A program made the translations under genes and the position numbers. A model generated the notes under the pieces. The model was given only the letters and a program-made list of their open reading frames with translations. It was not told the DNA's origin and ran no database searches. Source: Flavobacteriaceae bacterium (lineage in GTDB: Bacteria > Bacteroidota > Bacteroidia > Flavobacteriales > Flavobacteriaceae). From it: 64,000 nt of DNA. Shown one piece after another: positions 10,019 to 60,672 of this stretch (its first letter is position 1; every line of letters starts with the position of its first letter). The stretch spans positions 20,566 through 84,565 of the forward strand of contig JBBDIQ010000034.1 in NCBI GenBank assembly GCA_040880345.1. Direction: 5' to 3'.

Positions 10019-10063
10019 TAAAAATACAAAAACCGGAGTGTTTTTAATGTAACCTTTGTTACA
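10019..10063 (-). promoter_or_regulatory. Crp/Fnr-like palindrome plus -7 box upstream of the cytochrome c gene
   Basis: TGTAAC-CTTT-GTTACA at 10048-10063; TATTTTTA (minus) at 10019-10026; 21 nt between them. Confidence 0.6.
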
Positions 10064-10074
10064 GATAGAAAGAA

Positions 10075-10242
10075 TTAAGAAGCCAACACCTGCTCGCTGG
10101 TATTAACACTCTCGCCCTTCCAGTTTGGATTCAGGTTTACATAGGCCTTTACAGCCTCATTAAACTCTCTAACCTCTTGAGGTGTGATGTTGTTTTTTTT
10201 AAGAAGTGATTTGTAGCGTTCTTTGTAGTTTAAAGTCATCAT
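10075..10242 (-). CDS. Small hypothetical protein
   Basis: About 55 aa open frame (MMTLNYKERYKSLLKK...); no motif recognised. Confidence 0.4.
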   Translation of the reverse strand: MMTLNYKERYKSLLKKNNITPQEVREFNEAVKAYVNLNPNWKGESVNTSEQVLAS

Positions 10243-10459
10243 AAGAGCTGTGTTTAGAATAAACAATTGATTTTACCTTTCAAAGGTGCAAAAAAATCAT
10301 GCTGTCAAACAAGAGGGTTTTTCCTGAAATGCAAAAGGATTTTTAATTTTTAAGTGTAAATATTCCTGAATTTATTTTATTTTTAAAAATGCTATTTTTG
10401 TAAGAAATTCCAGCTAGGAAACCGACAGCTGCCGGAATTTTGATGAAAAAAATAAATCC

Positions 10460-12487
10460 ATGAAAAGACGCTTTTTCATTCCTCTATTTCTTTTGATCGT
10501 GAGTCTTGGTTTTTCGCAAAACCGTGATGCATTTTGTTTGAAGTTATACAAAATCAATGCCTTGCTTCAGAAAAATCATTACGCCCCCAAAGCGATTAAC
10601 AACCCCATGTCTGAGTATGTTTACAACACGTTTATCAACCGGCTTGATCCTGACGAACTTATTTTTATGCAACACGAAATCGACAGTTTATCAAAGTACA
10701 AACTGCTGATGGATAATGCTGTTTTTAATACCGAATGTGATTTTTTAAACGATTTTATCACGACTTACAGGGGAGGACTGGAGCGCCAACTTCAGTTACT
10801 GGACGAACTGGAAAAAGAACCCTTTCAACCGGAACTTTCAGATTCTCTGAGGTGGAAAGAAAAAGGCGATTTTTATGAAACCGCTGATGAAATCAAAAAC
10901 GTTTTCAGAAAACGTCTGGCTTACAGAGTGCTTGATACGTTTGCCAGAACCGGAACAAACAAAGACTCCCTCTACAGCCTGCTACCCCAACAAGCCCCTG
11001 AACTCAGTAAAACCGAACTCGAAAACCTGCGTTGTACCATAGAAAACCAGTTGAACCCCAACAATGGTTTGGATACCTATGTGCTGGATTTGTTTGCCAA
11101 TGTGTTTTCGGGCTATTTTGACCCTCATAGCAACTATTTCAACACAGATGCAAAAAATGATTTTTTCAATTCGTTGACTTCAGGAACACTCAGTTTTGGA
11201 TTGATCATGGAGTTGGGTGATTCAAATGAGGTAAATGTGTATGACATACTCTCGGGCAGTCCCGCCTTTCGCGATACGCGCATCGAAAAAGGCGACCGAC
11301 TCATCAGGGTCCAACACAAAGAAAATACCTTTGAGGTCAATTGTGTCAATATGGATGTGGTCAATACCATGTTTTATTCAGATACCTATAAAAACCTGCG
11401 GCTCACCTTTCGGAAGAAAAATGGGGTGGACTTTGAAACGCGACTTCAAAAGGAAATGCTCAAGAATTATGAAAACTCGGTTTTCAGTTTTATAATAGAA
11501 GGGAAAAAGAAGCTAGGCTACATCAATGTACCTTCTTTTTACAGCAATCTGGAAGGCAATACAACCAATGTCTATAACGATTTTTTCTTTGAACTCAACC
11601 ACTTAAAAAGTGAAGGCGCCAAAGGCTTTATCATTGATCTGCAAAACAATAGCGGAGGCGATATGACCCAGGTGTTATACATGATTAGCCTGTTTGTTGA
11701 TAGCGGACCTATCACCCTCTTAAAACACCGTCATAACCAGTACAATCTGGTGTATAATTTTTTTGAAAAAAAGCACTTCAGAGAACCGATGGTGGTGCTG
11801 ATTAATGGATATACGGGATCTGCCAGCGAACTCTTTGCCGCAGCCATGCAGGACCACAAGCGCGGGGTGCTTCTGGGCCAGCAAAGTTATGGCAAGGGAA
11901 CCCTGCAAACCTTTTTTCCTTTGGATGAAGAAAACCCCGAGGCCGAACTCCTCAAAGTCACCATCGAAAAAATGTTTCGCCTTGACGGAAAAAGCCACCA
12001 GCTCACAGGCATTGAACCCGACATCGTCACTCCGGCCTTGCTGGAACCCCTGTTTTTTAAAGAGAGTGACTATGCCCGTGCATTGGAAGTAGAAGACCTG
12101 GGCGAGAATTTTAAACTCAAGCGTAAGTTTCCTTCCTCCTACCGAAAAGCCATAGCATCCGGGCAGGAACGCATTGCTATGCGGCCACATTACAACGAAA
12201 TAGCAGCCTTCAACAAATCTATTGAGAAACAAATGGCAGAAAAGCGCGTTTTCCCTATCAATTTTGATTTTGTGTTTCAAGCCATTGAAAAGGAAAACCA
12301 ACTTTTTACGGGCTTTTATAGCATTTATGAAACTACGTATCCACTGCAACTGCGGGTACTTGAAAAAGATGAAAAGACTATGAACTATGACCCCTTGCTA
12401 AAGCCCATGGTGGAGGCCAACAAACAACGCGTCCTCACCAATCCCGATGTGCATGAAGCGGTTTATGTGATGCTGGATCTGTTGTAG
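10460..12487 (+). CDS. S41 family carboxy-terminal processing protease (Prc/Tsp-like)
   Basis: DPHSNYF, PDZ region, IIDLQNNSGG, catalytic GSASE and GKG motifs. Confidence 0.88.
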   Translation: MKRRFFIPLFLLIVSLGFSQNRDAFCLKLYKINALLQKNHYAPKAINNPMSEYVYNTFINRLDPDELIFMQHEIDSLSKYKLLMDNAVFNTECDFLNDFITTYRGGLERQLQLLDELEKEPFQPELSDSLRWKEKGDFYETADEIKNVFRKRLAYRVLDTFARTGTNKDSLYSLLPQQAPELSKTELENLRCTIENQLNPNNGLDTYVLDLFANVFSGYFDPHSNYFNTDAKNDFFNSLTSGTLSFGLIMELGDSNEVNVYDILSGSPAFRDTRIEKGDRLIRVQHKENTFEVNCVNMDVVNTMFYSDTYKNLRLTFRKKNGVDFETRLQKEMLKNYENSVFSFIIEGKKKLGYINVPSFYSNLEGNTTNVYNDFFFELNHLKSEGAKGFIIDLQNNSGGDMTQVLYMISLFVDSGPITLLKHRHNQYNLVYNFFEKKHFREPMVVLINGYTGSASELFAAAMQDHKRGVLLGQQSYGKGTLQTFFPLDEENPEAELLKVTIEKMFRLDGKSHQLTGIEPDIVTPALLEPLFFKESDYARALEVEDLGENFKLKRKFPSSYRKAIASGQERIAMRPHYNEIAAFNKSIEKQMAEKRVFPINFDFVFQAIEKENQLFTGFYSIYETTYPLQLRVLEKDEKTMNYDPLLKPMVEANKQRVLTNPDVHEAVYVMLDLL

Positions 12488-12544
12488 GGAATGACATTAA
12501 AGTAGTGTGTCAATTTGCCCTCCAAACTTTGATAACCCCACACT

Positions 12545-13252
12545 TTAAACCAATTTAAAATAGATATTGATATAATAAAGCCCGGTGAGAATAAAGACCA
12601 GGCCTGCAAGCAGGCGCATTACTTTTTCTACTTTGGTGATGGCTTTGAAGTACATTCCCAGTTTTTGCATACTAAAGGCGATTACAAAGGCAAAAAGGAT
12701 GACAGGTAAGCCTGTGCCAATGGCAAATAGAACGGGCAATGCCAGGCCAGCACTGGCTGAAAGCGTCAGGGGTATGAGCATCGCAAAAAACAAAGCACCG
12801 CTGTAAGGGCAGAATGCCAGGGCAAACAAAGCTCCCAAAAGAAAGGAACCCAGCAAGCCTTTGGTTTTGAATTTTTCAGAGAGTTTGTCAGTTATGTTTC
12901 CGCCTTTGATGAAATTTAATTTGATGACATCGAGCATAATGAGTCCGATAAAAATGAGCACAAAGCCAATGTATTTTTCGCCATTGCCCTGAAAGAGTTT
13001 GGCTACTTCAAATTTGCTGGCGCCAAAATAAATAATGGCACCAATCAACGTATAGGTCAGCACCCTGCCCAGCGTGTAAAGCACCCCGCTGAGCAACACC
13101 TTTTTTTTGTTGGTGATGGTTTTAGCAATGTATGCGGTTGCCGTAACATTGGTCGCCAAGGGGCAGGGGGCAATAGCCGTTAACAAACCCAGAGCAAAAG
13201 CGGCCAGCACAGGGGCTTCTCTGTTTTGAGCCAATTCGTTGATCCACTCCAT
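12545..13252 (-). CDS. arsG: ArsG-family aromatic arsenical efflux permease (CcdA/DsbD-TM-like)
   Basis: GLLTAIAPCPLATN and ALAFCPYSG motifs, multiple TM helices, adjacent to arsF-like gene. Confidence 0.75.
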   Translation of the reverse strand: MEWINELAQNREAPVLAAFALGLLTAIAPCPLATNVTATAYIAKTITNKKKVLLSGVLYTLGRVLTYTLIGAIIYFGASKFEVAKLFQGNGEKYIGFVLIFIGLIMLDVIKLNFIKGGNITDKLSEKFKTKGLLGSFLLGALFALAFCPYSGALFFAMLIPLTLSASAGLALPVLFAIGTGLPVILFAFVIAFSMQKLGMYFKAITKVEKVMRLLAGLVFILTGLYYINIYFKLV

Positions 13253-13255
13253 AGA

Positions 13256-13672
13256 TTACAGTTTCTGAAAGCTTGCTATTTTCTTTTTCAATTCCTGGAT
13301 GAATTTTTCTTTATTTCCGGCAGTCATAAAGGCAAACTCTGTGAGGTTTTCTTTTTTCCCCGTTTTGGGATTGTATAGAAACAGTGCTGTTCCAAAAGCT
13401 TCAAACTCGGCTGCTTTTTGTTCGTTTTTCTCATCGTCCACATTCACGGTTGAAAAGGGAATATCACTAAAATCCTTGAGGGTTTCCCGGGTGAGTTCTT
13501 CAATTTTGTTGCACGTCATACAGCGATTTTCTGAATGAAACTGTATGACCTCCATTGCAGCACTAGAAGAGGTCGCTTCTTGTTGTTTGGTGTTTTGTGC
13601 TCCGCCGTTGCAGGCGGTGAAAAGCAACATCACGACTGTTGCAAACGATAAAAAGATGTTTTTTGAATTCAT
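13256..13672 (-). CDS. arsF: ArsF-family thioredoxin-like lipoprotein
   Basis: Lipobox FTAC; FHSENRCMTC (CxxC) motif. Confidence 0.7.
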   Translation of the reverse strand: MNSKNIFLSFATVVMLLFTACNGGAQNTKQQEATSSSAAMEVIQFHSENRCMTCNKIEELTRETLKDFSDIPFSTVNVDDEKNEQKAAEFEAFGTALFLYNPKTGKKENLTEFAFMTAGNKEKFIQELKKKIASFQKL

Positions 13673-13684
13673 AGTATTTAAGTG

Positions 13685-14143
13685 TTAAAAGGTTCCGTAT
13701 TTATTGATAATGGACATTTGACCTGCGTGGTAGGCCGTGTGTGAAACGATTCTTCCAAAGGCTTCCGCTTTGGTTTTTGTGCCAAATTCTTTGGTGGTGA
13801 TGGTGGTTTCCCAATCTTCATCGGTTTGTTTTTCGACAATGGATTTTAGGTTTTCGAAAGCTTCAGAAACGTATTGTTTCAATGCACCCAAATCAGTCCA
13901 CTCGCCGGTGTCGCGTTTTTCAATGACTGTTTTTGCAGTGACTTTTACAGAGGAATCGCCAAACACATTTTTGGCGAAAAGCAATTCCACATCCCCAATA
14001 TGGCGCATTAAAAAGCCCACCGAATTTGGCGAAGTCCCCAATTTCTTTTTCAGGTCTTCTTCCTTTAGATTTTCCAATTGATTGGAAAAGCGGGTGCGTG
14101 CCTCAATCCAAAGTTCGAGTAGTAATTCTGTTTTTGTTTTCAT
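13685..14143 (-). CDS. DinB/YfiT family protein
   Basis: SVGFLMRHIG and SHTAYHAGQ metal-binding His motifs. Confidence 0.85.
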   Translation of the reverse strand: MKTKTELLLELWIEARTRFSNQLENLKEEDLKKKLGTSPNSVGFLMRHIGDVELLFAKNVFGDSSVKVTAKTVIEKRDTGEWTDLGALKQYVSEAFENLKSIVEKQTDEDWETTITTKEFGTKTKAEAFGRIVSHTAYHAGQMSIINKYGTF

Positions 14144-15114
14144 AATAGTATATTGAATAAAAATCCTGAAAGGATGATGAATAATGTAACGACTCCAAAA
14201 TAGATTGCAATGAGCTTCATGGTCATCACTTTTTTAAGCAGGGTCGCTTCGGGAATGGATAAACCCACGGTTGCCATCATAAAGGCAATGGCGGTTCCCA
14301 GCGGCACTCCTTTGGCGACAAACACTTGTATGACCGGCACGATGGCTGCGGCATTGGCATACATAGGTACGGCCACAATCACAGCGAGCGGCACGGTCCA
14401 CCATTGACCGCCACCCAGGTATTGCTGAAAGAAGTTTTCGGGTACATAGCCGTGCATGGCTGCACCTATGGCGATCCCTATGATTACATAAATCAATACG
14501 CTTTTTACAATGTCCCAGGCACCGTGTGTGATACCGGGCAACTTTTCGCGAAAGCTTTGTTTTTCTTCTTCAAATTCAGTTTGTTGCTGTTTGTTGGCAA
14601 GTATTTTCTTTACCCATTCAGAAAGGAGGGGTTCCAGGTTGAATTTGCCCAGCAACCAACCGCCAATGGTGCCCAACAGAATTCCGGACACGGCATAAAT
14701 CAAAGTGGCTTTGATGCCAAACATTCCTATAAACATTGCGATTGCCACTTCGTTTACCAAAGGTGAAGTAATCAAAAAGGAGAAGGTGACTCCCAGCGGA
14801 ATCCCCCCTTGAACAAAACCAATAAAAAGCGGTACTGACGAACACGAACAAAAGGGCGTAATGGCTCCAAAGGTGGACGAGAACAAATATTCCAGCCCGT
14901 AAAGTTTTTTTCTATTGAGGTAGTCCTTTAGTTTTTCAACGGGGAGATAGGCATTGACAATTCCCATCAGGAAAACAATAATGAATAAAAGGATGAGAAT
15001 TTTCAGGGTATCATACACAAAGAAATTCAGCGCGATTCCCAATTGGGTGTCGGCACCTATTCCAAACAGACTGTAAATAAGCCAGTCTGCAAGATGTTGA
15101 ATCCAGTCAAACAT
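14140..15114 (-). CDS. arsP: ArsP/DUF318-family permease
   Basis: TPFCSCSSVPLF, SPLVNE and GLSIPE motifs; about 8 TM helices. Confidence 0.78.
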   Translation of the reverse strand: MFDWIQHLADWLIYSLFGIGADTQLGIALNFFVYDTLKILILLFIIVFLMGIVNAYLPVEKLKDYLNRKKLYGLEYLFSSTFGAITPFCSCSSVPLFIGFVQGGIPLGVTFSFLITSPLVNEVAIAMFIGMFGIKATLIYAVSGILLGTIGGWLLGKFNLEPLLSEWVKKILANKQQQTEFEEEKQSFREKLPGITHGAWDIVKSVLIYVIIGIAIGAAMHGYVPENFFQQYLGGGQWWTVPLAVIVAVPMYANAAAIVPVIQVFVAKGVPLGTAIAFMMATVGLSIPEATLLKKVMTMKLIAIYFGVVTLFIILSGFLFNILL

Positions 15115-15119
15115 GGGGT

Positions 15120-15566
15120 TTAATTCTTGAGATTTTCAATAAATTTTCTTGCCTCGTCTCCTTTTAGGTAGTCGGCCAGACCCAGCAGGCCGTCTTTTAA
15201 GTAAGCCACCTGGTAGCCTTTGCTTTTTAAATAGACCATGGCAATGATTGCCCTGTCTTTATGAGGGCAAGCTGTAACGATGAGTTTGTTTTTTGGAAGT
15301 TCTTTGTAGCGTAAAGGAATTGTAGCCAAAGGCATTTTCAAGGCATAATCCATTTGCCAGGAGGCTTGTTCTTCTTCAAACCGGATATCAACGAGCAGTG
15401 CTTTGTCCTCCTGAAGTAATTGCACGATTTGCTCTGAAGAAACTTTCATTTCTTTTCTGTTTTCGTAACTAAAATTGAGTAAAAACGAATCCAGCGCATC
15501 TTGAGCCACAACAGAATTGGTCAAAAGGACGATGGCTGTAATTAAAGTGATTTTTATAGTTTTCAT
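15120..15566 (-). CDS. Exported rhodanese-like domain protein
   Basis: Signal peptide, LLVDIR, active-site loop TACPHKDRA, YLKDGL. Confidence 0.8.
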   Translation of the reverse strand: MKTIKITLITAIVLLTNSVVAQDALDSFLLNFSYENRKEMKVSSEQIVQLLQEDKALLVDIRFEEEQASWQMDYALKMPLATIPLRYKELPKNKLIVTACPHKDRAIIAMVYLKSKGYQVAYLKDGLLGLADYLKGDEARKFIENLKN

Positions 15567-15636
15567 ATTTTCTATTATTTAAAAATTAAGTAACTAATCA
15601 GGATTCATACAATATAATTTTGACTTTTATCAAAAA

Positions 15637-15732
15637 AATCTGCCCTAATCCGCTTAATCAGCGTCATCAGCGTTCTATTTATTAATTGGTATGGCACGCT
15701 GATAACGCGGATTTGGCTGATTTTCGCTGATA
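15637..15732. repeat. Inverted pair of 9-bp-periodic ATC(A/C/T)GC repeat tracts
   Basis: aatctgccctaatccgcttaatcagcgtcatcagcgttc faces gcacgctgataacgcggatttggctgattttcgctgata across an AT-rich loop. Confidence 0.7.
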
Positions 15733-15857
15733 AATTATCATAAATAGTAAAGATTTTACTAAGACCCTATTTATTTAAAATGAGTACTGATAAGCTTTGT
15801 ATTTTACAATTTGTATTTTTTTGAATTATCATTTGGTGGTACTGTCTAGTTACAAAA

Positions 15858-16241
15858 TTAACAACATCCTGAAGTTGAGCAGCAGGAATCGCCGGCTATT
15901 TCCTCGATTGGCGCTCCTTTTACGGGAAAGCCTTTTTGGGTCCAGCGTATGATGCCGTGTTGCATATTAACCACCTGTGTATAGCCGTGATTGACTAAAA
16001 AGCCGGCGGCGCGCAAACTTCTTCCGCCCCCTTTACAGACCATGACGACGTCTTTGTCTTTGGGAATTTCTGTATAGCGCTCTTCAAATTCTGAAAGCGG
16101 AATGTTGATGCAGTTGGGCACATCATAGGCCCATTGTTCCACTTCGTTTTTTTCGCGTACATCGACGAGCAATGCACCGTTTTTTACCCATTCCTGAGTG
16201 GTGGTGGGGCAAATCTCCTTGACAAGGGTTTGATTTTCCAT
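15858..16241 (-). CDS. Rhodanese-like domain protein with Cys-rich tail
   Basis: LVDVRE, CKGGGRS active-site loop, C-terminal SCCSTSGCC. Confidence 0.88.
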   Translation of the reverse strand: MENQTLVKEICPTTTQEWVKNGALLVDVREKNEVEQWAYDVPNCINIPLSEFEERYTEIPKDKDVVMVCKGGGRSLRAAGFLVNHGYTQVVNMQHGIIRWTQKGFPVKGAPIEEIAGDSCCSTSGCC

Positions 16242-16245
16242 AAGG

Positions 16246-16482
16246 TTATTTTTTTAGGAAGTCTATGATTTCGCTGACCTGAGCCACACGACCTTTGATT
16301 TTTATTTCTTCATCAATCACCAATACCGGAGTGACGAGCACATTGTACTTCATCATTTCTTCGATATCTTCTACTTTGGTAACTTCTGCTTTGAGTCCTG
16401 ATTGTTTGAGAGCTTCCAGAACATTGTTGTGGGTGGTTTTGCACTTGGGGCAACCGGGACCCAATACTTTTATGTGTGTCAT
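16246..16482 (-). CDS. Small redox-active disulfide (thioredoxin-like) protein, ArsE/MTH895 type
   Basis: IKVLGPGCPKC and TPVLVID motifs. Confidence 0.85.
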   Translation of the reverse strand: MTHIKVLGPGCPKCKTTHNNVLEALKQSGLKAEVTKVEDIEEMMKYNVLVTPVLVIDEEIKIKGRVAQVSEIIDFLKK

Positions 16483-16503
16483 AATTTTACGTTTACGATT
16501 TCT

Positions 16504-16550
16504 GTTCGCAAATATACGAACATATATTCGTAGTTCGCAAACTTACGAAC
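16504..16550 (-). promoter_or_regulatory. Tandem putative ArsR operators overlapping -7 boxes
   Basis: GTTCGCAAATATACGAAC (16504-16521) and GTTCGCAAACTTACGAAC (16533-16550), each containing TAnnTTTG on the minus strand. Confidence 0.7.
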
Positions 16551-16565
16551 AAAAACTATAAAAAA

Positions 16566-16871
16566 TTATTCCAACACTTTGCAAAGCAGGGCTTTTGCTT
16601 TGGTCCAGTTTTCTCTGTTGACACAATATTTGGTGGAGGGTGGGGTAATGTCACCCTGAATGAGGCCGGCATCTTTCAATTCTTTGAGGTGCTGGGAGAG
16701 TGTAGATTTTGCGATGGGCAATTCTTCTGCCATATCGCCGTGATAGCAACATGCCTGTGAGTTGAGCAATTCCAGAATGGCGATTCTCACGGGGTGACCC
16801 ATCGCTTTGGCAAAACGGGCGGCTTGCTCCTGCTCTGTGGTAAAGTAGTCTGATTTTAACGTGCCTGGCAT
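16566..16871 (-). CDS. arsR: ArsR/SmtB family transcriptional repressor
   Basis: KAMGHPVRIAIL, CCYHGDM, STLSQHLKELKDAGLI, YCVN. Confidence 0.93.
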   Translation of the reverse strand: MPGTLKSDYFTTEQEQAARFAKAMGHPVRIAILELLNSQACCYHGDMAEELPIAKSTLSQHLKELKDAGLIQGDITPPSTKYCVNRENWTKAKALLCKVLE

Positions 16872-16889
16872 TGTTTGACTTAATTTGTT

Positions 16890-16906
16890 GTTCGCAAATA
16901 TACGAA
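16890..16906 (-). promoter_or_regulatory. Putative ArsR operator/promoter upstream of arsR
   Basis: GTTCGCAAATATACGAA, identical to the site at 16504-16520. Confidence 0.7.
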
Positions 16907-50895: not shown

Positions 50896-51081
50896 TTAAT
50901 CTTTGACTCCAAACTTCTTCAGGATATCTTCCATCAGGCACCATTTGGTGATGGATGATTGTAAAAGGTTTACACCCACAAAGGCGGTAAACCAAAGCCA
51001 GTTGATGTTGACATAAACCGCCAGCAACAGGCTGATGATGATAAACGTGCCGGCAACGGCTCTAATGATTCTGTTTAACAT
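50896..51081 (-). CDS. DUF2892 (YgaP-like) membrane protein
   Basis: NRIIRAVAG...FVGVNLLQSSITKWC. Confidence 0.85.
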   Translation of the reverse strand: MLNRIIRAVAGTFIIISLLLAVYVNINWLWFTAFVGVNLLQSSITKWCLMEDILKKFGVKD

Positions 51082-51304: not shown

Positions 51305-51613
51305 TCAAATAGCTCTTTCAATCGGCAGGACGACCACCCGCACCGGATTGTTGGTTTCCAGGTTTTGGTTGTATTCGGTGACCAATGTGAAAAACGCGTC
51401 AATGTTGGCTTCTTCTGTAAAGGAAAACACCATTAGTGATTCACTGCCGCCTTTCTCTCCCGGGAACCAGCTTTGTGTGGCTATGACTGAGTTGTTTCCA
51501 TTTTTGTAGCCGTCAATTTCTGAGGTACTAAAGGCCTCGATTCCGGCTTTCTTGAACAGCTTGAGAACGTCTTTTTGAAATTCTTCTACTGCGGTTACGA
51601 TTAATAGTTTCAT
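51305..51613 (-). CDS. Hypothetical protein, P-II/GlnB-like fold suspected
   Basis: 102 aa, MKLLIV...IDG...SLMVFSF...VRVVVLPIER pattern. Confidence 0.55.
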   Translation of the reverse strand: MKLLIVTAVEEFQKDVLKLFKKAGIEAFSTSEIDGYKNGNNSVIATQSWFPGEKGGSESLMVFSFTEEANIDAFFTLVTEYNQNLETNNPVRVVVLPIERAI

Positions 51614-51800: not shown

Positions 51801-54800
51801 CTATTCTGTTTTCTCTATTCTACTTTCTTCTTCCACAACTTCCGGATACTGCTTTTTCATAATCAGGTAATACACCAGCGGCACCACCAGCAAGGTTAGG
51901 AAGGTTGAACCAATGGTTCCGCCCATTAACGAGATGGCGAGTCCTTGGAAAATGGGATCAAACAGGATGACAAAGGCACCAATCACCACGGTTCCTGCAG
52001 TAAGCAGAATAGGGGTAGTCCGCACGGCTCCGGCTTCCAAAATGGCCTGTTTCAGCGGTACACCGTCTTCCAACCGCAGGTTGACAAAGTCAATGAGCAG
52101 TACAGAATTTCGCACCATAATTCCCGCCAGAGCAATCATCCCGATAAAGGAGGTGGCGGTAAAGAAGGCGCCCAGCAACCAGTGACCAATTACAATTCCA
52201 ATCATCGACAGCGGTATCGCCACCATCATCACGATGGGCGCTTTAAAGTTCTGAAACCAACCCACAATGAGCATATAGATAATCACAATCACGCCCAGAA
52301 AGGCAATCCCCAAATCACGGAATACTTCCAGGGTGATTTGCCATTCACCATCCCATTTTACGGTAAAGTCGTCCTCGTGCTCCGGCTGACTGGCATAGAG
52401 TTCGTTCATAGTGTAGCCTTCCGGCAGGGGAATTTGTTTTAGTTTTTCTTCCATCCCTAAAATGGCATACACAGGGCTTTCCAAAGTTCCCGCCATATCG
52501 GCCAGGACATAGACGACGCGTTTTTGGTTTTTACGGTAAATGCTTTTGGGCACGGTACTTTCATTGATCGTCACCAAATCTCCCACTGAGACCATATTTC
52601 CCTGTTGGGAAGCGATTTCGATTTGTGCGATGGCTTCGGGGCTCGCTTTTTCGGCCTCGTCCAGGGCGAGTAAAATTCCCACACGCTCGGTGGCGTTTTC
52701 GTCATACAAATGGGTCACAGCGTTTTCGCCCAAAGCCATGCGCAGTGTGTGCACAATTTGCTGAGGCGCCACGCCAAAACGCATCGCTTTTTCACGGTCG
52801 ATGTCATAGACAAATTCGGTTTGATCGGCTTCCACCATCCAGTCGATATCGACCACATCGGTGGTGTTGCGTAAAATGCTTTGCACCGAATCGGCCACCC
52901 GGATTTGCTCTTCATAATCGGGCCCGTAAATCTCTGCCACGATGGTACTCAGTACCGGAGGTCCCGGCGGTACTTCCACCAGCTTGACATTGGCGCCATA
53001 TTTGGAAGCGATTTTTTGAATATCAGGACGCAGCAGTTTGGCGATGCCATGACTTTGCAGTTTGCGGTCGCCTTTGTCTTTGATGTTTACCTGAATATCA
53101 GCCGTGTTGGAAGCTCCCCGTAAATCGTAGTGACGCACCAAACCGTTGAACGTAATGGGTGCCGAGGTACCCACATAAGTTTGATAGTTCACCACTTCCG
53201 GGCGTCCTGAAAGGTACTGGGCGATTTCCTGAGTCACCACATTGGTGCGCTCCAGGGTGGTGCCTTCGGGCATGTCGATGACTACCTGAAATTCGTTTTT
53301 ATTGTCAAAAGGCAGCATTTTTACCAAAACACTTTCGGTAAAGAACATCGCTACCGAGCCTATGAGCAACAAGGTGGTAATCCCCAGTGCCATCCATCGT
53401 TTTGTGGGATTGTCAAGCAGCGGGCGTTCAAACCTGCTGTAGATTTTATAGATGCGGGTGTCTTCAATTTCGATGGGTTTTTCGGTCTCGCCGGAAGCGT
53501 TTTTCTTTTCTTTTTCGCGTAAGAAAATATAACCCAGATAAGGCGTAATGGTCAAAGCAACTATCAGAGAGAGAATCATCGCAATGGAAGCCCCAATCGG
53601 CATCGGGCTCATATAGGGTCCCATCAATCCGCTAACAAAGGCCATCGGTAATACTGAAGCGATTACTGTAAAAGTTGCTAAAATCGTCGGATTCCCCACC
53701 TCGTTGATGGCATAGAGGGCAGCCTGCTTGAACGGCAGGCGTTTCATCTTGAAGTGGCGGTGCATGTTTTCGGCGATAATGATGGAGTCGTCCACCACAA
53801 TACCCGTCACAAAGACCAAAGCAAATAGGGTGATTCGGTTGAGTGTATAGTCTAACAAATAGTAACTCAGCATCGTCAAAGCAAAGGTTACCGGCACCGA
53901 AAGAAATACGACCAGTCCGCCGCGCCACCCCATGGCCAGCATCACCACGATGGTTACAGCGATGATAGCACCCAGGAGGTGCAAGAGGAGTTCGCTTACT
54001 TTTTGGGAGGCGGTTTCGCCATAGTTGCGTGTGACTTCCACCTGCACATCATCCGGGATGATGGTGGTGCGGAGGTGTTCTACTTTGTCCAGAATAATAT
54101 CAGATAGTTTCATCGCATCGGCTCCTTTGCGCTTGGCGACAGAAATGGTAACAGCCGGGTAATCTGATGGAAAATCTTCCGCCAGTTGGGGATGCGCCCG
54201 GCCATACCCATAACTCACATATTCTTTGGAAAGCTCGGGGCCGTCAAGCACCTGAGCGATTTGCTTTAAATAGACCGGTTGGTTTTGAGTGGTACCCACG
54301 ATGAGGTTTTCGACATCGTCAAGGGTTTGCAAAAAGCTTCCGGTATTGACTTTAAATTCGGTATCGTTGCGGTTGAAGGATCCGGAAGTCATTTGGATGT
54401 TGCTAGCCTGAATTTTTTCAGCTACGCCCAGCATATCGACTCCGGCAGAGGCCATTTTGTTTTTATCGAGCACGACACGTATTTCGCGGTTACGCCCACC
54501 GATTTTGTGAGTGGTGGCGACATCGGTTATTTTACTGATTTCGTTGTTGACTTCATTGGCGATTTGGCGCAGCTGGTAGTCGTCATAGGTTTCGCTCCAA
54601 AGCGTTAGTCCCAGCATGGGTACATCGTCTATGGAACGGGTTTTGACCAGTGGCGGTGTCACTCCGGCAGGCATCTGGTCCATGTGTTTCATCAACTCGT
54701 TGTAGAGTTTTACATAGGAACGCTCGATGTCTTCACCCACATAAAACTGCACGATGATCATGCCCTGTTCCTGCATGGAAGTGGAATAGACATACTCCAC

Positions 54801-55043
54801 GCCTTTGATGTTGGACACCATTTTCTCGATGGGCTTGATGACCCGTGACTCTACTTCCAACGGACTCGCTCCGGGATAGCCAATAAAGATATCGGCCATG
54901 GGCACGTCAATCTGTGGTTCTTCTTCCCGCGGGATTAAAAAGGAACTGTACACCCCCACGACCATAAACACGATCATTAGCAGGATGGTGAGCTTGGAGT
55001 CTATAAATAATTTGGCGATTTTGCCGGCTAAACCTTCTTTCAT
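51801..55043 (-). CDS. RND efflux transporter permease subunit
   Basis: 1080 aa, PREEEPQI, GIVVDDSIIIAEN, GIMVRNSVLLIDF, RTTPILLT. Confidence 0.95.
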   Translation of the reverse strand: MKEGLAGKIAKLFIDSKLTILLMIVFMVVGVYSSFLIPREEEPQIDVPMADIFIGYPGASPLEVESRVIKPIEKMVSNIKGVEYVYSTSMQEQGMIIVQFYVGEDIERSYVKLYNELMKHMDQMPAGVTPPLVKTRSIDDVPMLGLTLWSETYDDYQLRQIANEVNNEISKITDVATTHKIGGRNREIRVVLDKNKMASAGVDMLGVAEKIQASNIQMTSGSFNRNDTEFKVNTGSFLQTLDDVENLIVGTTQNQPVYLKQIAQVLDGPELSKEYVSYGYGRAHPQLAEDFPSDYPAVTISVAKRKGADAMKLSDIILDKVEHLRTTIIPDDVQVEVTRNYGETASQKVSELLLHLLGAIIAVTIVVMLAMGWRGGLVVFLSVPVTFALTMLSYYLLDYTLNRITLFALVFVTGIVVDDSIIIAENMHRHFKMKRLPFKQAALYAINEVGNPTILATFTVIASVLPMAFVSGLMGPYMSPMPIGASIAMILSLIVALTITPYLGYIFLREKEKKNASGETEKPIEIEDTRIYKIYSRFERPLLDNPTKRWMALGITTLLLIGSVAMFFTESVLVKMLPFDNKNEFQVVIDMPEGTTLERTNVVTQEIAQYLSGRPEVVNYQTYVGTSAPITFNGLVRHYDLRGASNTADIQVNIKDKGDRKLQSHGIAKLLRPDIQKIASKYGANVKLVEVPPGPPVLSTIVAEIYGPDYEEQIRVADSVQSILRNTTDVVDIDWMVEADQTEFVYDIDREKAMRFGVAPQQIVHTLRMALGENAVTHLYDENATERVGILLALDEAEKASPEAIAQIEIASQQGNMVSVGDLVTINESTVPKSIYRKNQKRVVYVLADMAGTLESPVYAILGMEEKLKQIPLPEGYTMNELYASQPEHEDDFTVKWDGEWQITLEVFRDLGIAFLGVIVIIYMLIVGWFQNFKAPIVMMVAIPLSMIGIVIGHWLLGAFFTATSFIGMIALAGIMVRNSVLLIDFVNLRLEDGVPLKQAILEAGAVRTTPILLTAGTVVIGAFVILFDPIFQGLAISLMGGTIGSTFLTLLVVPLVYYLIMKKQYPEVVEEESRIEKTE

Positions 55044-55171: not shown

Positions 55172-56248
55172 CTATTGTTTTACAGCTACTTTTGCTCCAT
55201 TGTAAAGTTTTCCTTCTGCATCTATAATCACGGCTTCTTCAGCATTGAGACCGGAGAGGACTTCGACTTCGTTGCCAAAGGATCTTCCCAGTCGTAACCA
55301 GCGTAATATGGCTGTGTTTTGCTGGCTCACGGTGTAAACGCCCCGCAAATCTCCCTGATTGACAATGGCCTCTTCAGGCACGGTCACCAGTTGCTGGGAT
55401 TCTTCGGTTTGTTCTACCGGAAACTTTACGGTGGCATACATCCCTGACTTTAGAGCTTCGTCTTTTTCCAGTACTATATTTACAGGATACTGACCGCCGG
55501 TCATGCTGGAGGAGCTGCTCACTTCAGTGACTTTTCCGGAAACGGTTTTATTGATGGAATTGATGTGTACTTCTACGTTTTCACCGGTTTTGATTTGGCT
55601 GATACTGCTTGCGGGGACCGTGGCGCGTACTTCAAAGTTTCCGGGGGCTTCGATGGCAATCAAGGGCATACCCGGATTGGCCATAGAACCGCTTTCGATA
55701 AAACGGTTGGTGACCACACCGCTGAACGGCGCTCTAATTTCGGCGTAAGCAAACTGGGCATTGATTTCGGCTTTCATTGCATTGGCTGATTCCAGACGGG
55801 CTTTGGCCATTTCATAATGAGCGGTCATATCGTCCAGTTCTTTTTGGGAAGCGCTGTTTTGTGCAAACAAGGCGGTGAAACGTTCAAAATCTCTTTTGGC
55901 ATTGTTGACAGCAACCTGTGCTTCATTGATACCGGCGGTGACCTGAGCGCGTTTGGCCTGCAGGTCGTTGTTATTGATGGACACTAATAGCTGCCCTTGA
56001 GAAACGTTGTCGCCAATGTTGACGTGTACCTTATTGACATATCCCATCATTCGGGTGCTTAGGGTAGCGTTGTTGACGGCGACGACCTCTCCGCTTACAG
56101 TGAGGTTGCTACCCGAACTTGCCGCAGGGGCTTTTACCGTGACCTGAATGACCGGGCGGTTGTCTGTTGCAGTGTCTTTTTCTGAATTGCCACAGCTGCT
56201 AAGGAGCAGTGCGGTTAGAGCTAGTATGCTTAGTATTGGTGTTTTCAT
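55172..56248 (-). CDS. RND periplasmic adaptor (membrane fusion) lipoprotein
   Basis: ATG 56248 with lipobox LSSC; GQLLV, IRAPFSGVV, SGMYA. Confidence 0.92.
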   Translation of the reverse strand: MKTPILSILALTALLLSSCGNSEKDTATDNRPVIQVTVKAPAASSGSNLTVSGEVVAVNNATLSTRMMGYVNKVHVNIGDNVSQGQLLVSINNNDLQAKRAQVTAGINEAQVAVNNAKRDFERFTALFAQNSASQKELDDMTAHYEMAKARLESANAMKAEINAQFAYAEIRAPFSGVVTNRFIESGSMANPGMPLIAIEAPGNFEVRATVPASSISQIKTGENVEVHINSINKTVSGKVTEVSSSSSMTGGQYPVNIVLEKDEALKSGMYATVKFPVEQTEESQQLVTVPEEAIVNQGDLRGVYTVSQQNTAILRWLRLGRSFGNEVEVLSGLNAEEAVIIDAEGKLYNGAKVAVKQ

Positions 56249-56305
56249 TTTCAATATGTTGCTTTTTTGGTTTCTCGCAAAGACGCTGAGGCGCAAAGCG
56301 AATTG

Positions 56306-57616
56306 TTATTCTCCTTTGGTTAAAAATTTTAGGTATGCTTTCGCGAAATTGTATTCAAATACGGTTTGTAAGTATTCCAGTTGTTTTTGGGCAAATTGGG
56401 TTTCGCTTTGTAACAGGTCAGTGGTTTTTTCCAGGCCTTGCTCAAAGCGGTTGGTGCGTATGCGTAAGGCTTCATCTGACTGTTCCACGGCGAGTTCGCT
56501 GCGGTTTAACTGATCGAGCAAATCATTGACCTGACGCTGTGCTTTGTTTATTTCCATTTGGCTCTGTGCTTTGTATTGGTCGAGTTCGATGCGTGATTGT
56601 TCGAGTTCGGCTTTGCTTTTTTGTGCTTTTCCGAAGCGTTTTCCGCCCTGGAATAAGTCCCAGCTCAGTTGGGCACCCACCAGGTAGCCATCGGCATTTC
56701 CTTGAAAAATTTCGTTGTCATAGAGTTCATAGCTTCCAAAGGCATTCAGGCGTGGGAGGAACGCCATTTGGTCGGCTTTGTTCATTTTCGCGTAAGCTTC
56801 AGTAGCCAGTGTCATCGCTTGAATGTCTGAACGGTTTTCGTTGAGGGATGTGTTTTGAAGCGTTGCAAGTTCAGTTGCTTCGAGTGTGTCTGTGGGATTC
56901 CAAATTGTATAGGTTTCTTCGCCCATCAGAAAAGACAGGTAGTCTGAAGCGTTTTGCACGTTACTTTTGGCTTGTTGTAATTGGTTTTGAACTTCGCTAA
57001 CGCGGACTTCCACTGCCAAAACATCTGAGCGTTGCAGGTAGCCCTGATCAAAACTGTTGTTTGCCAGTTTTTGGTTTTCCTGAGCGGCCTCCAGTGCTTT
57101 TTGTAAAACACTTACGGCTTTGTGTGCTACCTGAAGTTGCATATAGGCTTTTTCCACTTCCAGAAGGATATAGTCCTGAGTGCGTTGGCCTTGCAATTGG
57201 GTGGCCTGCATGTTGCTTTTGGCAGCCTGCCGCTGAAAGATGCCGTCTATATTGATGAGGGGTTGTTGTATTTCAAACCTGGTAGCGAAGTTATCGGTGC
57301 GCTCAGGATTATTCAATAGCGCAGGATTGAAATCATTTTGAGTAAGAATTTCCTGATTGAGTTTGGAACCAAACGCCATCAAGGGGTTGGTAGTGGTGAT
57401 CCCAGTATGTGAGGCGGTGATATTGGGCAGGAACACCGCATTGGTTTGGCGGTAGTCGGCACGTGCCTGCAGGAATTCCTGTTCAGATATTTTTATGTTG
57501 CGGTTGTTTTCGAGTACGCCGGTTAGGGCTTGTTCTTTAGAAAGCGGCTTTTGCTCCTGGGCAAAAAGGAGTGTGCTGCTTGCTATGGAAAGGAGTACTA
57601 ATAGTGTTTTCTTCAT
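56306..57616 (-). CDS. TolC family outer membrane efflux protein
   Basis: Signal peptide, FLPNIT/FLPRLN repeats, LSWDLFQGG, RFEQGL. Confidence 0.92.
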   Translation of the reverse strand: MKKTLLVLLSIASSTLLFAQEQKPLSKEQALTGVLENNRNIKISEQEFLQARADYRQTNAVFLPNITASHTGITTTNPLMAFGSKLNQEILTQNDFNPALLNNPERTDNFATRFEIQQPLINIDGIFQRQAAKSNMQATQLQGQRTQDYILLEVEKAYMQLQVAHKAVSVLQKALEAAQENQKLANNSFDQGYLQRSDVLAVEVRVSEVQNQLQQAKSNVQNASDYLSFLMGEETYTIWNPTDTLEATELATLQNTSLNENRSDIQAMTLATEAYAKMNKADQMAFLPRLNAFGSYELYDNEIFQGNADGYLVGAQLSWDLFQGGKRFGKAQKSKAELEQSRIELDQYKAQSQMEINKAQRQVNDLLDQLNRSELAVEQSDEALRIRTNRFEQGLEKTTDLLQSETQFAQKQLEYLQTVFEYNFAKAYLKFLTKGE

Positions 57617-57636
57617 TTTATCTCAATTTGACAGGG

Positions 57637-57681
57637 CAAAAGTACGGCGTCAAATGAGGTGGGTCAGTAACCTTTGTTACC
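57637..57681 (-). promoter_or_regulatory. Crp/Fnr-like palindrome plus -7 box upstream of tolC
   Basis: AGTAAC-CTTT-GTTACC at 57666-57681; TACTTTTG (minus) at 57637-57644; 21 nt between them. Confidence 0.62.
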
Positions 57682-57776: not shown

Positions 57777-57802
57777 AATCTGTAAACTAATTAAAAGAAT
57801 TG

Positions 57803-57832
57803 TATCTTTGATAGTATCATATGATACTATCA
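57803..57832 (+). promoter_or_regulatory. fic promoter -7 box and perfect 24-bp palindrome
   Basis: TATCTTTG at 57803-57810; TGATAGTATCATATGATACTATCA at 57809-57832; ATG at 57835. Confidence 0.72.
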
Positions 57833-57834
57833 CA

Positions 57835-58794
57835 ATGAAACCTCCATACGATATCACGCCCGAAATTTTAAAGTTAGTAAGCACTATTTCAGAAAAAATA
57901 GGGGTAATCAACGCCAACTATTTGGACAAGCCTTCCCCGACCTTAAGGAAACAAAACAGAATTAAAACCATCCATGCTTCACTAAAAATTGAGGGAAACA
58001 CCTTGACGGAAGAACAAATCACAGCGCTTCTTGAAGAGAAACGAGTCATTGGTCCAAAAAAAGATGTTTTGGAGGTGCTAAATGCTATTACCATTTACGA
58101 AGACCTAAAAAAGTACCATCCCAATGATGAAAAAGCCTTTTTAAAAGCCCACCGGGATTTAATGAAAAACCTGATCGATGATGCCGGAGCCTACCGAAAA
58201 CAAGGAGTTGGGATTGTAAAAGGAGAACAAGTTGAACATGTGGCTCCGCCCTTTGGGAATGTACCTTATTTGATGAAAGACCTTTTTAATTACTTAAAAA
58301 AGTCAGACGAAATAGCGTTGATAAAGAGTTGCGTTTTTCATTATGAAATGGAATTTATCCATCCGTTTTCAGATGGAAACGGCAGAATGGGAAGGTTATG
58401 GCAGACCTTACTATTAATGGAAAAATACCCCGTTTTTGAGTTTCTGCCTTTTGAAACGATGATTTCCAATGATCAGGAAAAATATTATGCTGCTTTGGCG
58501 CGAAGCGACAAATCAGGAAATTCAACAGCTTTTATTGCTTATATGCTAAGGGTCATCGATGCTTCAATTAACAAGCTATTGGATTACAATAATCGAACGT
58601 TTACAGAACAAGACCGGCTTGACTATTTTATTTCCTTAAACCAAAATGAATTTTCACGTAAAGAGTATATGGATGTGTTTAAAGATATCTCTTCAGCAAC
58701 CGCCAGCAGGGATTTAAAAAGGGGTGTGGAATTAAATCTTTTTAAACGCGTGGGGGAAAAGAACAAAACAACTTATGAAATTATAAAGCTTTGA
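57835..58794 (+). CDS. Fic family protein with C-terminal HTH-like domain
   Basis: HPFSDGNGRMGR Fic motif; C-terminal SSATASRDLK; ATG 57835 preferred. Confidence 0.92.
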   Translation: MKPPYDITPEILKLVSTISEKIGVINANYLDKPSPTLRKQNRIKTIHASLKIEGNTLTEEQITALLEEKRVIGPKKDVLEVLNAITIYEDLKKYHPNDEKAFLKAHRDLMKNLIDDAGAYRKQGVGIVKGEQVEHVAPPFGNVPYLMKDLFNYLKKSDEIALIKSCVFHYEMEFIHPFSDGNGRMGRLWQTLLLMEKYPVFEFLPFETMISNDQEKYYAALARSDKSGNSTAFIAYMLRVIDASINKLLDYNNRTFTEQDRLDYFISLNQNEFSRKEYMDVFKDISSATASRDLKRGVELNLFKRVGEKNKTTYEIIKL

Positions 58795-58956: not shown

Positions 58957-59106
58957 TTACGATTTTTGATACTCTTTTGATCGCGTACTGCCGTGACCTC
59001 CCGCCACAATGAGCATTACTTTTAATCCCAGCCAAATAAATTTGATAAATTGCCAAACGGGATTTTGCATCCAGAAGCGTTTACTTTTTGAAATTCGTTG
59101 TGTCAT
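58957..59106 (-). CDS. 49-aa putative membrane peptide downstream of the SQR-like gene, not in the ORF track
   Basis: MTQRISKSKRFWMQNPVWQFIKFIWLGLKVMLIVAGGHGSTRSKEYQKS; starts 12 nt after the SQR stop. Confidence 0.6.
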   Translation of the reverse strand: MTQRISKSKRFWMQNPVWQFIKFIWLGLKVMLIVAGGHGSTRSKEYQKS

Positions 59107-59118
59107 AACGTTAGATTT

Positions 59119-60576
59119 TTATTCCGGTAGTAACCACCAGAAGGGTTTCATTTTTGCTTTATACATAAACACATAGTGAAGCATCAGTTTGAGCCAGTGA
59201 CCTGCCAATCCTATTTCACCAAAGGTTTTTCCAAGTTTTCGACCTTGAGTTTCCGGGTATTTTTTATAATCGGGCACAATAGGAAAGGTTGTGATGCTGA
59301 TACCGTTTCCGGAAAACGAACCAAAGCCTGCAGAGGCAATACAAGCAGCACCCATATTAGCCATAGAGCCTTTATGATCCAGGGAATTTTTTCTTTTTTT
59401 AATGGTGTCAATAATATTGTCTGCTACCAATTTTGCGGTAATTCCTGAAGGCATTCCGGTGCGTGGCGGTGAGGGAAAAATCTCAGTGCCGTTTTTGCTT
59501 TTTCGGGGTTTTGAAATGCTGTGGGGTGGGGCAAAAGCGATTCCTGGTGCAAAGATATTTTTATAGGAAGGGTTTTGATAGGTTTCCGGCCAGTCCTGTG
59601 CTGTCCATTCTTCATAGGGTTTGGATGTATAATCGGCATCTACCAGCATAAAGCCTTTAAAAAGCTTGTCGGTAATCTCGTTGTTGTTTTTGTCAAAGGC
59701 TTTAAAACCGTGTCCTGAAAACGCCGGGATCAGCATGGCAAAGTCAAAGGTTTCAGATTTGTGTTCGCCCTCCAGGTTTTCATAATGGGCAACTCCATCT
59801 TCAATTTTGTTTACTCCCGCTCCCAGAATCCAGTTGATGTTGCGGTCTTCAAAGACCATTTCCACCATTTCGCTGGATTTCATAGTATTGCTGCCATAGG
59901 TGAGCAGCATACCGTCCATCCCAAAATCCCCCAAGCGGTATTCATTGGAAATCCAAGTGATTTCCGCTTTGTCACGCACTTTATGACGGCGGAGTTCTTG
60001 TTCTACATTGAGTATATATTCAAATGCTGCCCCTTGACAGGTAGCTTTACCGTGCCCGGTTCCGATAAGGATTTTTACTTTTTTTCCTTGCTTCATTTCT
60101 TCAATCAAGGCTTTGAGTGCTTTCCAGGTGGGGTCTGCGTGGGTATAGGTACAGACAGAATGGGTTTTGTTTTTTCCGGGGATGAGTCCTTCGGTGGCTT
60201 CAAAATTGAGTTTGGGGCCTGTGGCGTTTATGAGGTAATCGTAAGTTACTTTTTCTGCTGTACCTCTTTGATTTTCTGAAACGTGTTCCACTAAAACATA
60301 GGGTGAATTTTCAGTGGCATCTCCTTCCGGGTAGAAAGTGGTAGCTTTTGCCTGAATAAAATCAATTTTTTTCTTTTTATAAAGGGGTGCCAGGGGGAAT
60401 AGGATTTCCTTAGACTTCATTCTTCCGATACCTACCCAGATATTGGATGGGATCCATTGGTAGTTACTGTTGGGAGATACTACCACGACCTGATGGTCTT
60501 TGGAAAGTTTTCGGCGGAGGTGGGAAGCAGCCACATGACCGGAAATACCGGCTCCCAGGACGACTATTTTTGCCAT
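59119..60576 (-). CDS. sqr: Sulfide:quinone oxidoreductase-like FAD-dependent oxidoreductase
   Basis: VVLGAGISG, YQWIPSNIWV, YDYLINATG, SVCT, TCQGAAFE, PPRTGMPS, ACIAS, C-terminal amphipathic tail. Confidence 0.72.
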   Translation of the reverse strand: MAKIVVLGAGISGHVAASHLRRKLSKDHQVVVVSPNSNYQWIPSNIWVGIGRMKSKEILFPLAPLYKKKKIDFIQAKATTFYPEGDATENSPYVLVEHVSENQRGTAEKVTYDYLINATGPKLNFEATEGLIPGKNKTHSVCTYTHADPTWKALKALIEEMKQGKKVKILIGTGHGKATCQGAAFEYILNVEQELRRHKVRDKAEITWISNEYRLGDFGMDGMLLTYGSNTMKSSEMVEMVFEDRNINWILGAGVNKIEDGVAHYENLEGEHKSETFDFAMLIPAFSGHGFKAFDKNNNEITDKLFKGFMLVDADYTSKPYEEWTAQDWPETYQNPSYKNIFAPGIAFAPPHSISKPRKSKNGTEIFPSPPRTGMPSGITAKLVADNIIDTIKKRKNSLDHKGSMANMGAACIASAGFGSFSGNGISITTFPIVPDYKKYPETQGRKLGKTFGEIGLAGHWLKLMLHYVFMYKAKMKPFWWLLPE

Positions 60577-60627
60577 AATACCATAATTTAGAGTGAAGAA
60601 GTAAGCGCTTTGCTTATTTTCATAGTC

Positions 60628-60672
60628 TAAATGTATTTGATTATGAGCAGATTGAATGTAACAAAAGTCACA
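60628..60672 (-). promoter_or_regulatory. Crp/Fnr-like palindrome plus -7 box upstream of sqr
   Basis: TGTAAC-AAAA-GTCACA at 60657-60672; TACATTTA (minus) at 60628-60635; 21 nt between them. Confidence 0.62.

Follow-up and report, generated by a model that had tools for sequence, protein, structure and literature searches.

NtcA, CRP and FNR activate transcription at class II promoters, and Crp/Fnr proteins centred at -41.5 are classically activators. NtcA is the global nitrogen regulator of cyanobacteria, which senses 2-oxoglutarate with PipX and controls nitrogen assimilation. The HcpR2 branch, found in Bacteroides and relatives, is predicted to bind GTAACnnnnGTTAC and has Pro in place of Glu181; its genes lie beside hcp, and its regulons consist essentially of hcp only, in the context of nitrosative stress (Rodionov et al. 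2005, PMC1274295). The dedicated sulfur sensors listed in a 2026 review belong to the CsoR, ArsR and Fis classes only. Here we analyse a stretch of 64,000 nucleotides (nt) from a marine Flavobacteriaceae bacterium (the window; C34:20566-84565, C34 being its contig, in an assembly of 3.21 Mb and 37.6% G+C), in which a Crp/Fnr-like palindrome precedes a cytochrome c gene, an efflux operon and a gene for sulfide:quinone oxidoreductase (SQR), each time at the same distance from the -7 box of the promoter.

Our comparison suggests that these sites are probably operators of one Crp/Fnr factor, a protein of 213 amino acids (aa) encoded beside a TauE gene, which would drive a sulfide/persulfide regulon by class II activation. 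Binding by this protein, activation and co-induction are what we infer from sequence.

Three putative operators and the genes behind them

On direct reading, the three 16-mers that had been predicted, their coordinates, their minus-strand orientation, the 21-nt spacer and the TAnnTTT(G/A) boxes were all exact, and Pfam and PDB matches bore out the identities proposed for the downstream loci (cytochrome c/DUF3365, TolC-RND and SQR). The features are as follows.

10063-10048, minus strand: operator 1, TGTAACAAAGGTTACA, a perfect palindrome; ATG of its gene at 10000
10026-10019, minus strand: -7 box TATTTTTA, 21 nt past operator 1
9035..10000, minus strand: lipoprotein-like cytochrome c fused to a Tll0287-like (DUF3365) haem domain, 321 aa (PF11845 4e-22, PF13442, PF00034)
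57681-57666, minus strand: operator 2, GGTAACAAAGGTTACT, next base G (-33-like position); ATG of its gene at 57616
57644-57637, minus strand: -7 box TACTTTTG, 21 nt past operator 2
56306..57616, minus strand: TolC-family outer-membrane factor, first gene of the efflux operon (PF02321 6e-45)
55172..56296, minus strand: RND membrane-fusion (adaptor) protein, MFP (PF16576, PF13437; TIGR01730 1e-62)
51801..55043, minus strand: RND permease, 1080 aa (PF00873 1e-165)
51305..51613, minus strand: 102-aa protein, co-oriented after the RND gene and a presumed operon member
50896..51081, minus strand: 61-aa YgaP-like transmembrane (DUF2892) protein, co-oriented and a presumed operon member (PF11127 5e-13)
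60672-60657, minus strand: operator 3, TGTGACTTTTGTTACA, with one departure from the palindrome; ATG of its gene at 60576
60635-60628, minus strand: -7 box TACATTTA, 21 nt past operator 3
59119..60576, minus strand: SQR homologue, 485 aa, monocistronic (PF07992)

The flanks of the three operators share no extended similarity with one another, so the operators are not copies of a repeat element. The cytochrome c/Tll0287 gene is monocistronic, and its translation contains two CxxCH motifs. The RND permease scores under the cut-off of every named NCBIfam subfamily, and the 102-aa protein gave no match in Pfam and NCBIfam searches. The SQR homologue has the PF07992 fold (FAD-binding Rossmann, pyridine-nucleotide-disulfide oxidoreductase type) and both SQR-type cysteine motifs (..ATCQGAAFE.. 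and ..GAACIASAG..), and its nearest relatives are SQRs, the best PDB matches being those of Aquifex (E 1e-36) and Acidithiobacillus (8e-32); it falls under the cut-off of the sole NCBIfam SQR model, that of the type III selenoprotein.

The SQR leader also holds an 11-codon open reading frame, MKISKALTSSL (60588-60623, minus strand), between the -7 box and the start codon. It is probably insignificant, as cysteine codons are absent and conservation is not obvious.

Spacing, not the palindrome alone, is non-random

In the whole genome, TGTAAC-N4-GTTACA occurs 1, 11 and 158 times with 0, 1 and 2 mismatches, against 0.36, 12.5 and 198 expected from base composition. Since these counts are at chance level, we dropped palindrome enrichment as evidence, and the case rests on spacing, position and conservation. 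The distance from the site to the next TAnnTTT(G/A), taken over 169 sites in both orientations, was 21 nt in 7 cases and 20 nt in 3, with about 0.8 per other offset. Eight control palindromes, in which TGTAAC was permuted at the same composition, gave 0 or 1 cases at offset 21 and never more than 4 at any one offset. We conclude that the non-random element is the composite of site and fixed spacing.

A weight matrix had been proposed as a check; we built it from the sites of relatives only, with no sequence of this genome included. When the 3.2-Mb genome was scanned, the three window sites came within the top 10 hits (7 distinct sites, because palindromes score on both strands), and operator 1 was the top-scoring match.

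Some other matches were set aside. Five further one-mismatch matches to the core in the window (1336, 6030, 38917, 39582 and 61329) lack a correctly spaced box and resemble background, as do the three-mismatch sites, that of TauE (below) excepted. High-scoring matrix matches at C43:51916, C14:96725, C24:11848 and C2:13304 lie inside coding frames without a box and were treated as chance. A further matrix match, C22:34029, has a weak site.

A candidate regulator with three conserved cysteines

The original prediction placed the activator outside the window, and the best candidate indeed lies 18.4 kb past its end: a 213-aa Crp/Fnr regulator at C34:102970-103611, directly upstream of TauE and a gene for a fusion of persulfide dioxygenase (PDO) and rhodanese. 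It is one of four proteins of this genome that scored above the Pfam cut-off in a search for the Crp helix-turn-helix domain. An N-terminal cNMP-type beta-roll (PF00027, 36 bits, cut-off 27.5) is joined to a C-terminal Crp-type helix-turn-helix (PF13545, 31 bits, cut-off 27). Its AlphaFold (AF2) model has a pLDDT of 84.6, and Foldseek aligned it at a TM of about 0.75 with 3dv8, CRP, NtcA and FNR. NtcA is its best characterised PDB sequence match (E 1e-9, ahead of CRP), and NCBIfam holds no specific model for it, the NtcA model giving 42.9 bits against a cut-off of 245.

The only cysteines of the regulator are Cys77, Cys83 and Cys84, all in the beta-roll, within the motif T-C-x-M-T-x-x-C-C. All three are invariant in 77 orthologues (61-83% identity). 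Homologues at 46-48% identity from another class of the phylum and from another family of the same class keep the cysteine motif together with an SRVV(I/V)SR helix, and some of them have an adjoining site.

In the recognition helix, SRVVISR, the Arg180 and Arg185 of CRP are kept and Glu181 is replaced by Val. The half-site TGTAAC agrees with such an R-V-x-x-x-R helix, in which the Glu181 of CRP is absent, and on this reading of the sequences helix and motif agree with known specificity in the Crp/Fnr family. The proposal of a Crp/Fnr-type site thus holds in that a Crp/Fnr regulator is the best candidate, but the half-site is TGTAAC, NtcA- and HcpR2-like (GTA-N8-TAC), and not the TGTGA that had been invoked. 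A site follows the stop codon of the regulator gene, and sites precede each following unit at the TauE/PDO locus.

Regulator loci in relatives

We collected 80 loci encoding orthologues of the regulator (63-85% identity; 936 kb in total) from Planktosalinus, Altibacter, Aequorivita, Dokdonia, Maribacter, Kordia, Cellulophaga, Flavobacterium and others. They contain 263 sites with at most two mismatches, and in 175 of these the -7 box stands at exactly 21 nt, with at most 15 cases at any other offset. When only boxes at 20-22 nt are considered, 175/179 sites have exactly 21 nt. In most of the 80 loci a site stands right after the regulator stop codon. Minor peaks in the histogram of distances from site to TAnnTTT(G/A) (loci L004-L083) fall at 9 nt, with 15 cases, and at 47 nt, with 8.

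The genes downstream of the sites fell into the following clusters. Family libraries were searched with clusters of more than 70 aa, apart from some of those listed.

Rhodanese and PDO-rhodanese: 238
TauE: 46
HMA proteins: 31
The regulator itself: 22
Cytochrome c/Tll0287: 22, in 19 loci, as a member of site-preceded operons
1-Cys peroxiredoxin (Prx): 16
DUF983: 9
TolC and MFP: 5 loci, this genome included
Fatty-acid hydroxylase: 5 loci, this genome included
Cytochrome bd: CydA 7, CydB 2
SulP: 7
YeeE/YedE: 6 and 4
Second SQR/FCSD-like flavoprotein: 4
Sulfite-oxidase-type molybdoenzyme: 2

hcp was not among the clusters named, which are most of the 24 largest, and no search of the loci or the genome was aimed at it.

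Conservation at orthologous promoters

The original prediction would have fallen if the sites were not conserved in orthologous promoters. Orthologues of the three window genes were sought in one genome from each of 60 other Flavobacteriaceae genera, and the upstream regions were scanned; sites were conserved for SQR, TolC and cytochrome c alike. All 8 SQR orthologues carry TGTAAC-N4-GTTRCT upstream, with nAnnTTTr at 21 nt. For TolC, 21 of 25 orthologues have site and box 60-220 nt upstream; one of the remaining four loci has a shifted box, one has the site 1.4 kb upstream and two are without a site. The two genomes without a TolC site are also without the regulator, and their TolC matches, at 34-39% identity, are more remote than any other and are perhaps not orthologous. 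A site accompanies 10 of 16 cytochrome c orthologues, directly upstream in 3 and within 1.5 kb in the same orientation in 7; these more distant sites fit, because the gene often lies inside site-preceded operons. In some of these genera the genes are close neighbours: the distance between SQR and TolC is 0.4-0.6 kb in five and 3-3.3 kb in another two, and in three genera cytochrome c lies within 2-3.3 kb of SQR.

Across 61 whole genomes, the composite GTAAC-N4-GTTAC-N22-TAnnTTT gave 113 matches, against 4 for the reversed pattern. Of the 61 genera, 53 have the regulator. Their genomes hold 112 of the matches, and the 8 genomes without it hold 1; at least one match was found in 43/53 and 1/8 genomes, respectively (Fisher p = 3e-4). 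Comparative evidence firmly places the TolC-MFP-RND pump, cytochrome c/Tll0287 and SQR in the predicted regulon.

Three further observations concern these promoters and genes. In most TolC promoters across genera, the first position of the operator is G, not T (GGTAAC...GTTACT; window position 57681, loci L112-L134), a conserved variant specific to this promoter. The SQR leaders (about 90 nt) of two other genera (L087 and L088) share the palindrome ATGATTAAAATCAT, which is absent from the leader in the window and may be a second control element in those two genera. In the window, a Fic/DOC-family gene (57808-58794, plus strand) sits between SQR and the TolC operon on the opposite strand; given the SQR-TolC gap of about 0.4-0.6 kb in five related genera, it looks like an insertion into a sulfur island.

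Further predicted members of the regulon in this genome

Outside the window, the following sites were found in front of genes of this genome.

C29:300877, box at 21 nt: precedes two tandem rhodaneses
C29:326926, box at 21 nt: precedes a membrane protein of the fatty-acid-hydroxylase family
C34:100513, box at 21 nt: precedes an exported rhodanese, then an HMA protein, a racemase and a CusA-type pump
C34:102096, box at 21 nt: precedes a 484-aa metallo-beta-lactamase-fold/rhodanese fusion of the PDO type
TGTGACTTTTGTTGCT, box at 20 nt, overlapping the stop codon of the regulator gene: precedes the TauE/SafE sulfite-exporter gene
C38:41785, TGTAACCTATGTAACA with TAAATTTG at 20 nt: precedes a DUF983-like zinc-ribbon membrane protein

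The nearest NCBIfam model to the fatty-acid hydroxylase is OlsE, far under its cut-off (120 vs 475 bits). The DUF983-like family is also preceded by sites in 9 related loci. From these data, the predicted regulon comprises SQR, the TolC-MFP-RND operon, cytochrome c/Tll0287, TauE, the PDO-rhodanese fusion, three rhodanese units and the fatty-acid hydroxylase, and probably the DUF983 protein, which makes at least 8-10 predicted promoters in this genome. The proposal that these sites, with their common spacing, define a regulon is supported by the offset spike, the controls and the conservation of promoters across genera. The three window loci belong to the predicted regulon, as foreseen, but its core is persulfide and sulfite handling (PDO-rhodanese, rhodaneses and TauE), not SQR.

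Three other features of this region stand apart from the list. About 4.8 kb past the window end, at C34:89362, a high-scoring intergenic site, TGTAACAAAAGTAACT-G, lies 215 nt upstream of a TetR-family gene, with a degenerate box at 21 nt (TAATATTA); it is a possible extra member of the regulon. Downstream of the site-preceded rhodanese-HMA unit, C34:93987-98336 encodes a 1449-aa CusA/CzcA-family RND protein whose C-terminal extension weakly matches the TolC family (residues 1151-1312, E about 1e-6), possibly a fusion of pump and channel. Within the window, an ArsR-headed cluster with two rhodaneses (12545-16906) has no TGTAAC-type site and seems to form a unit of its own, related to sulfur or arsenic.

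Predicted mode of action and signal

A logo of 213 unique promoters of relatives gave an extended, asymmetric motif, T-n-TGTAAC-nnnn-GTTAC-t-G. The T at -1 occurs in 167/213 promoters and the G at position 17 in 149/213; neither played a part in site selection. G17 stands 20 nt from the -7 box. Among the 351 ordinary promoter-like boxes of this genome, the -33 TTG peaks at spacers of 20 (19 cases) and 21 (14 cases), against about 7 elsewhere. The palindrome is centred 8.5 nt upstream of the -33 G17. C15 of the operator replaces the first T of the -33 TTG, so that cTG remains and the centre falls at about -41.5. The predicted geometry fits the position of a class II activator.

Class II placement, base-exact spacing and a weakened -33 favour an activator over a repressor, and we consider activation likely on these grounds. 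The regulator dimer would bind T-n-TGTAAC-N4-GTTAC-t-G, its promoter-proximal half-site abutting the degenerate -33 (cTG), with the -7 box after exactly 21 nt; it most likely recruits RNA polymerase at promoters whose -33 is weakened.

Most regulator-proximal targets handle persulfide, sulfite or thiosulfate, which argues for sulfane sulfur (persulfide or polysulfide), or for sulfide acting via sulfane sulfur, as the signal. Sulfane sulfur is the more likely predicted signal, rather than low O2. In our reading of the alignment, Cys77, Cys83 and Cys84 align with the CRP stretch from Glu72 to Arg82/Ser83, which holds the cAMP ribose-phosphate. The regulator would sense sulfane sulfur covalently via these three invariant cysteines. 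More doubtfully, and as part of the wider proposal below, sulfane sulfur might link the cysteines within the cAMP-phosphate cassette, and this covalent polysulfide bridge might replace the nucleotide as the allosteric trigger, giving a DNA-binding dimer capable of class II activation.

Alternative explanations

Several observations weigh against a sulfane-sulfur-responsive activator acting at these sites. The palindrome by itself is not enriched genome-wide. The assignment of the sites to the Cys-triad regulator is drawn from adjacency, co-occurrence and helix/motif logic, and in this genome the regulator gene is preceded by a half-site only (TGTCAC). Model confidence is low in the Cys77-Cys83 loop, with pLDDT < 50 for residues 80-82. 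The presence of HMA proteins, CusA-like pumps, Prx and CydAB among the regulon members could also suit a metal or redox signal, and a site that overlaps the -33 element could equally serve a repressor. Finally, an SQR of this type occurs in only 10/61 genera, against 53 for the regulator, which makes SQR an accessory member of the predicted regulon.

With the same regulator and sites, the signal could be other than reactive sulfur. The triad might then bind a metal ion or an Fe-S cluster and respond to O2, redox state, NO or Cu/Zn, and the sulfur genes would be part of a hypoxia or metal response. The Crp/Fnr family does include the O2 sensor FNR and the NO sensor HcpR, and the regulons of relatives contain CydAB, 1-Cys Prx, HMA proteins and CusA-like pumps. 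However, PDO-rhodanese, rhodaneses, TauE and YeeE/YedE are the commonest targets and those nearest the regulator. The protein has Cys77, 83 and 84 only, without the N-terminal cysteine cluster of FNR, and vicinal cysteines are, to our knowledge, unusual as cluster ligands. We consider a non-sulfur signal rather unlikely.

The same protein could also act as a repressor that blocks the -33 region and is released by the signal, like CstR, SqrR and BigR; the operator abuts or overlaps the -33 position, and known persulfide sensors are mostly repressors. Yet the spacing is invariant to the base, a precision that stereospecific contact with RNA polymerase would demand and occlusion would not. In addition, the invariant C of the operator takes the place of the first T in the -33 TTG, as fits activator-dependent promoters, and the -41.5 position is classically that of activators in this family. 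Repression therefore appears improbable to us.

A third possibility is that another factor, such as a Crp-like paralogue, reads the sites and that the Cys-triad protein is merely a member of the regulon. The genome does encode three further Crp-type proteins above the Pfam cut-off, and the regulator gene itself is site-preceded in about 20 related loci. The paralogues (C41:41189, C37:70731 and C29:9380), however, carry other recognition helices, namely REVITR (the classical TGTGA type), RVETVIR and ESLIR; the composite tracks the presence of the Cys-triad regulator (112 matches vs 1), and a site follows the stop codon of that regulator in most of the 80 loci. Control by another factor is very unlikely. 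The paralogue of the C41:41189-41317 region, also of 213 aa, retains just one of the three cysteines, the first (SCVMT), and its helix is of the classical R-E-x-x-x-R kind; presumably it recognises a TGTGA-type box and answers to another signal.

That the three matches are functionless chance resemblances, as the expected genome frequency of the palindrome alone might suggest, is contradicted by the offset spike, the controls, the cross-genus conservation of promoters and the 113-vs-4 composite count, and has a negligible probability.

Significance and comparison with known systems

Beyond the reading of these sites as operators of a sulfur-responsive activator, we advance a wider and more doubtful proposal: the Cys-x5-Cys-Cys subfamily of Crp/Fnr proteins might be a fourth structural class of dedicated reactive-sulfur sensor and the main sulfide/persulfide regulator of Flavobacteriaceae and other Bacteroidota, also controlling an RND pump and a Tll0287-type haem protein. 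Bacteroidota account for a major part of the breakdown of organic matter in marine water, sediments and guts, habitats in which sulfide is common. Sulfide sensing in this phylum is undescribed, the reviews searched listing CsoR-, ArsR- and Fis-type sensors only. If the proposal is true, a reactive cysteine triad in the nucleotide pocket would be a new way to drive the well-studied allosteric scaffold of Crp. The sharply defined operator could be used for reporters, and the regulon would give a sulfur-stress context to components that are little understood so far, namely to a divergent TolC-MFP-RND pump, to the cytochrome c/Tll0287 (DUF3365) protein and to DUF2892 and DUF983 membrane proteins.

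The system resembles class II activation by E. coli CRP and FNR in its 16-bp palindrome with 6-4-6 geometry, in a predicted centre near -41.5 that overlaps the -35/-33 element and in the two-domain fold of the protein. In contrast to CRP, the regulator is without the cAMP-contact residues and has cysteines in the cassette, and its half-site is TGTAAC, not TGTGA or TTGAT. It also differs from FNR, as it is without an N-terminal cysteine cluster for [4Fe-4S].

NtcA is alike in both box and helix: the NtcA box GTA-N8-TAC is contained in TGTAAC-N4-GTTACA, the class II centre of NtcA at -41.5 is like the one predicted here, and both proteins have an R-V-x-x-x-R helix (TRVTVTR in NtcA, SRVVISR here). 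The regulator differs from NtcA in its pocket Cys-x5-Cys-Cys, in a longer half-site (GTAAC) and in its sulfur regulon, and its hosts are Bacteroidota with sigma-AB-type -33/-7 promoters. The likeness to HcpR2 lies in a motif core identical to GTAACnnnnGTTAC and in the loss of the Glu181 of CRP. Here, however, the replacement is Val, not the Pro of HcpR2, and the neighbours are TauE and PDO-rhodanese in place of hcp.

In gene content, the closest systems are the CstR-controlled cst operon of Staphylococcus aureus, SqrR/BigR and FisR, which share genes of the same kind: TauE, PDO-rhodanese (CstB-like), rhodaneses and SQR. By this analogy, the gene set would serve sulfide/persulfide detoxification and be functionally equivalent to the staphylococcal cst regulon. 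In known persulfide sensors, di- or polysulfide links arise between paired cysteines; the regulator has conserved cysteines, for which such chemistry is a prediction. CstR (CsoR) and SqrR/BigR (ArsR) are repressors and FisR is a sigma-54 enhancer-binding activator, whereas the fold of the regulator is Crp/Fnr, not CsoR, ArsR or Fis/NtrC, and its sites are at the predicted class II position. Our full-text literature search, with subscription journals outside its scope, found no paper that ties a Crp/Fnr regulator to the control of SQR, PDO or rhodanese. These comparisons point to a sulfur-stress regulator from a protein family not reported in that role: the fold and the class II architecture are known, and a Crp/Fnr activator with this sensory motif and this regulon would, as read from the sequences, be new.

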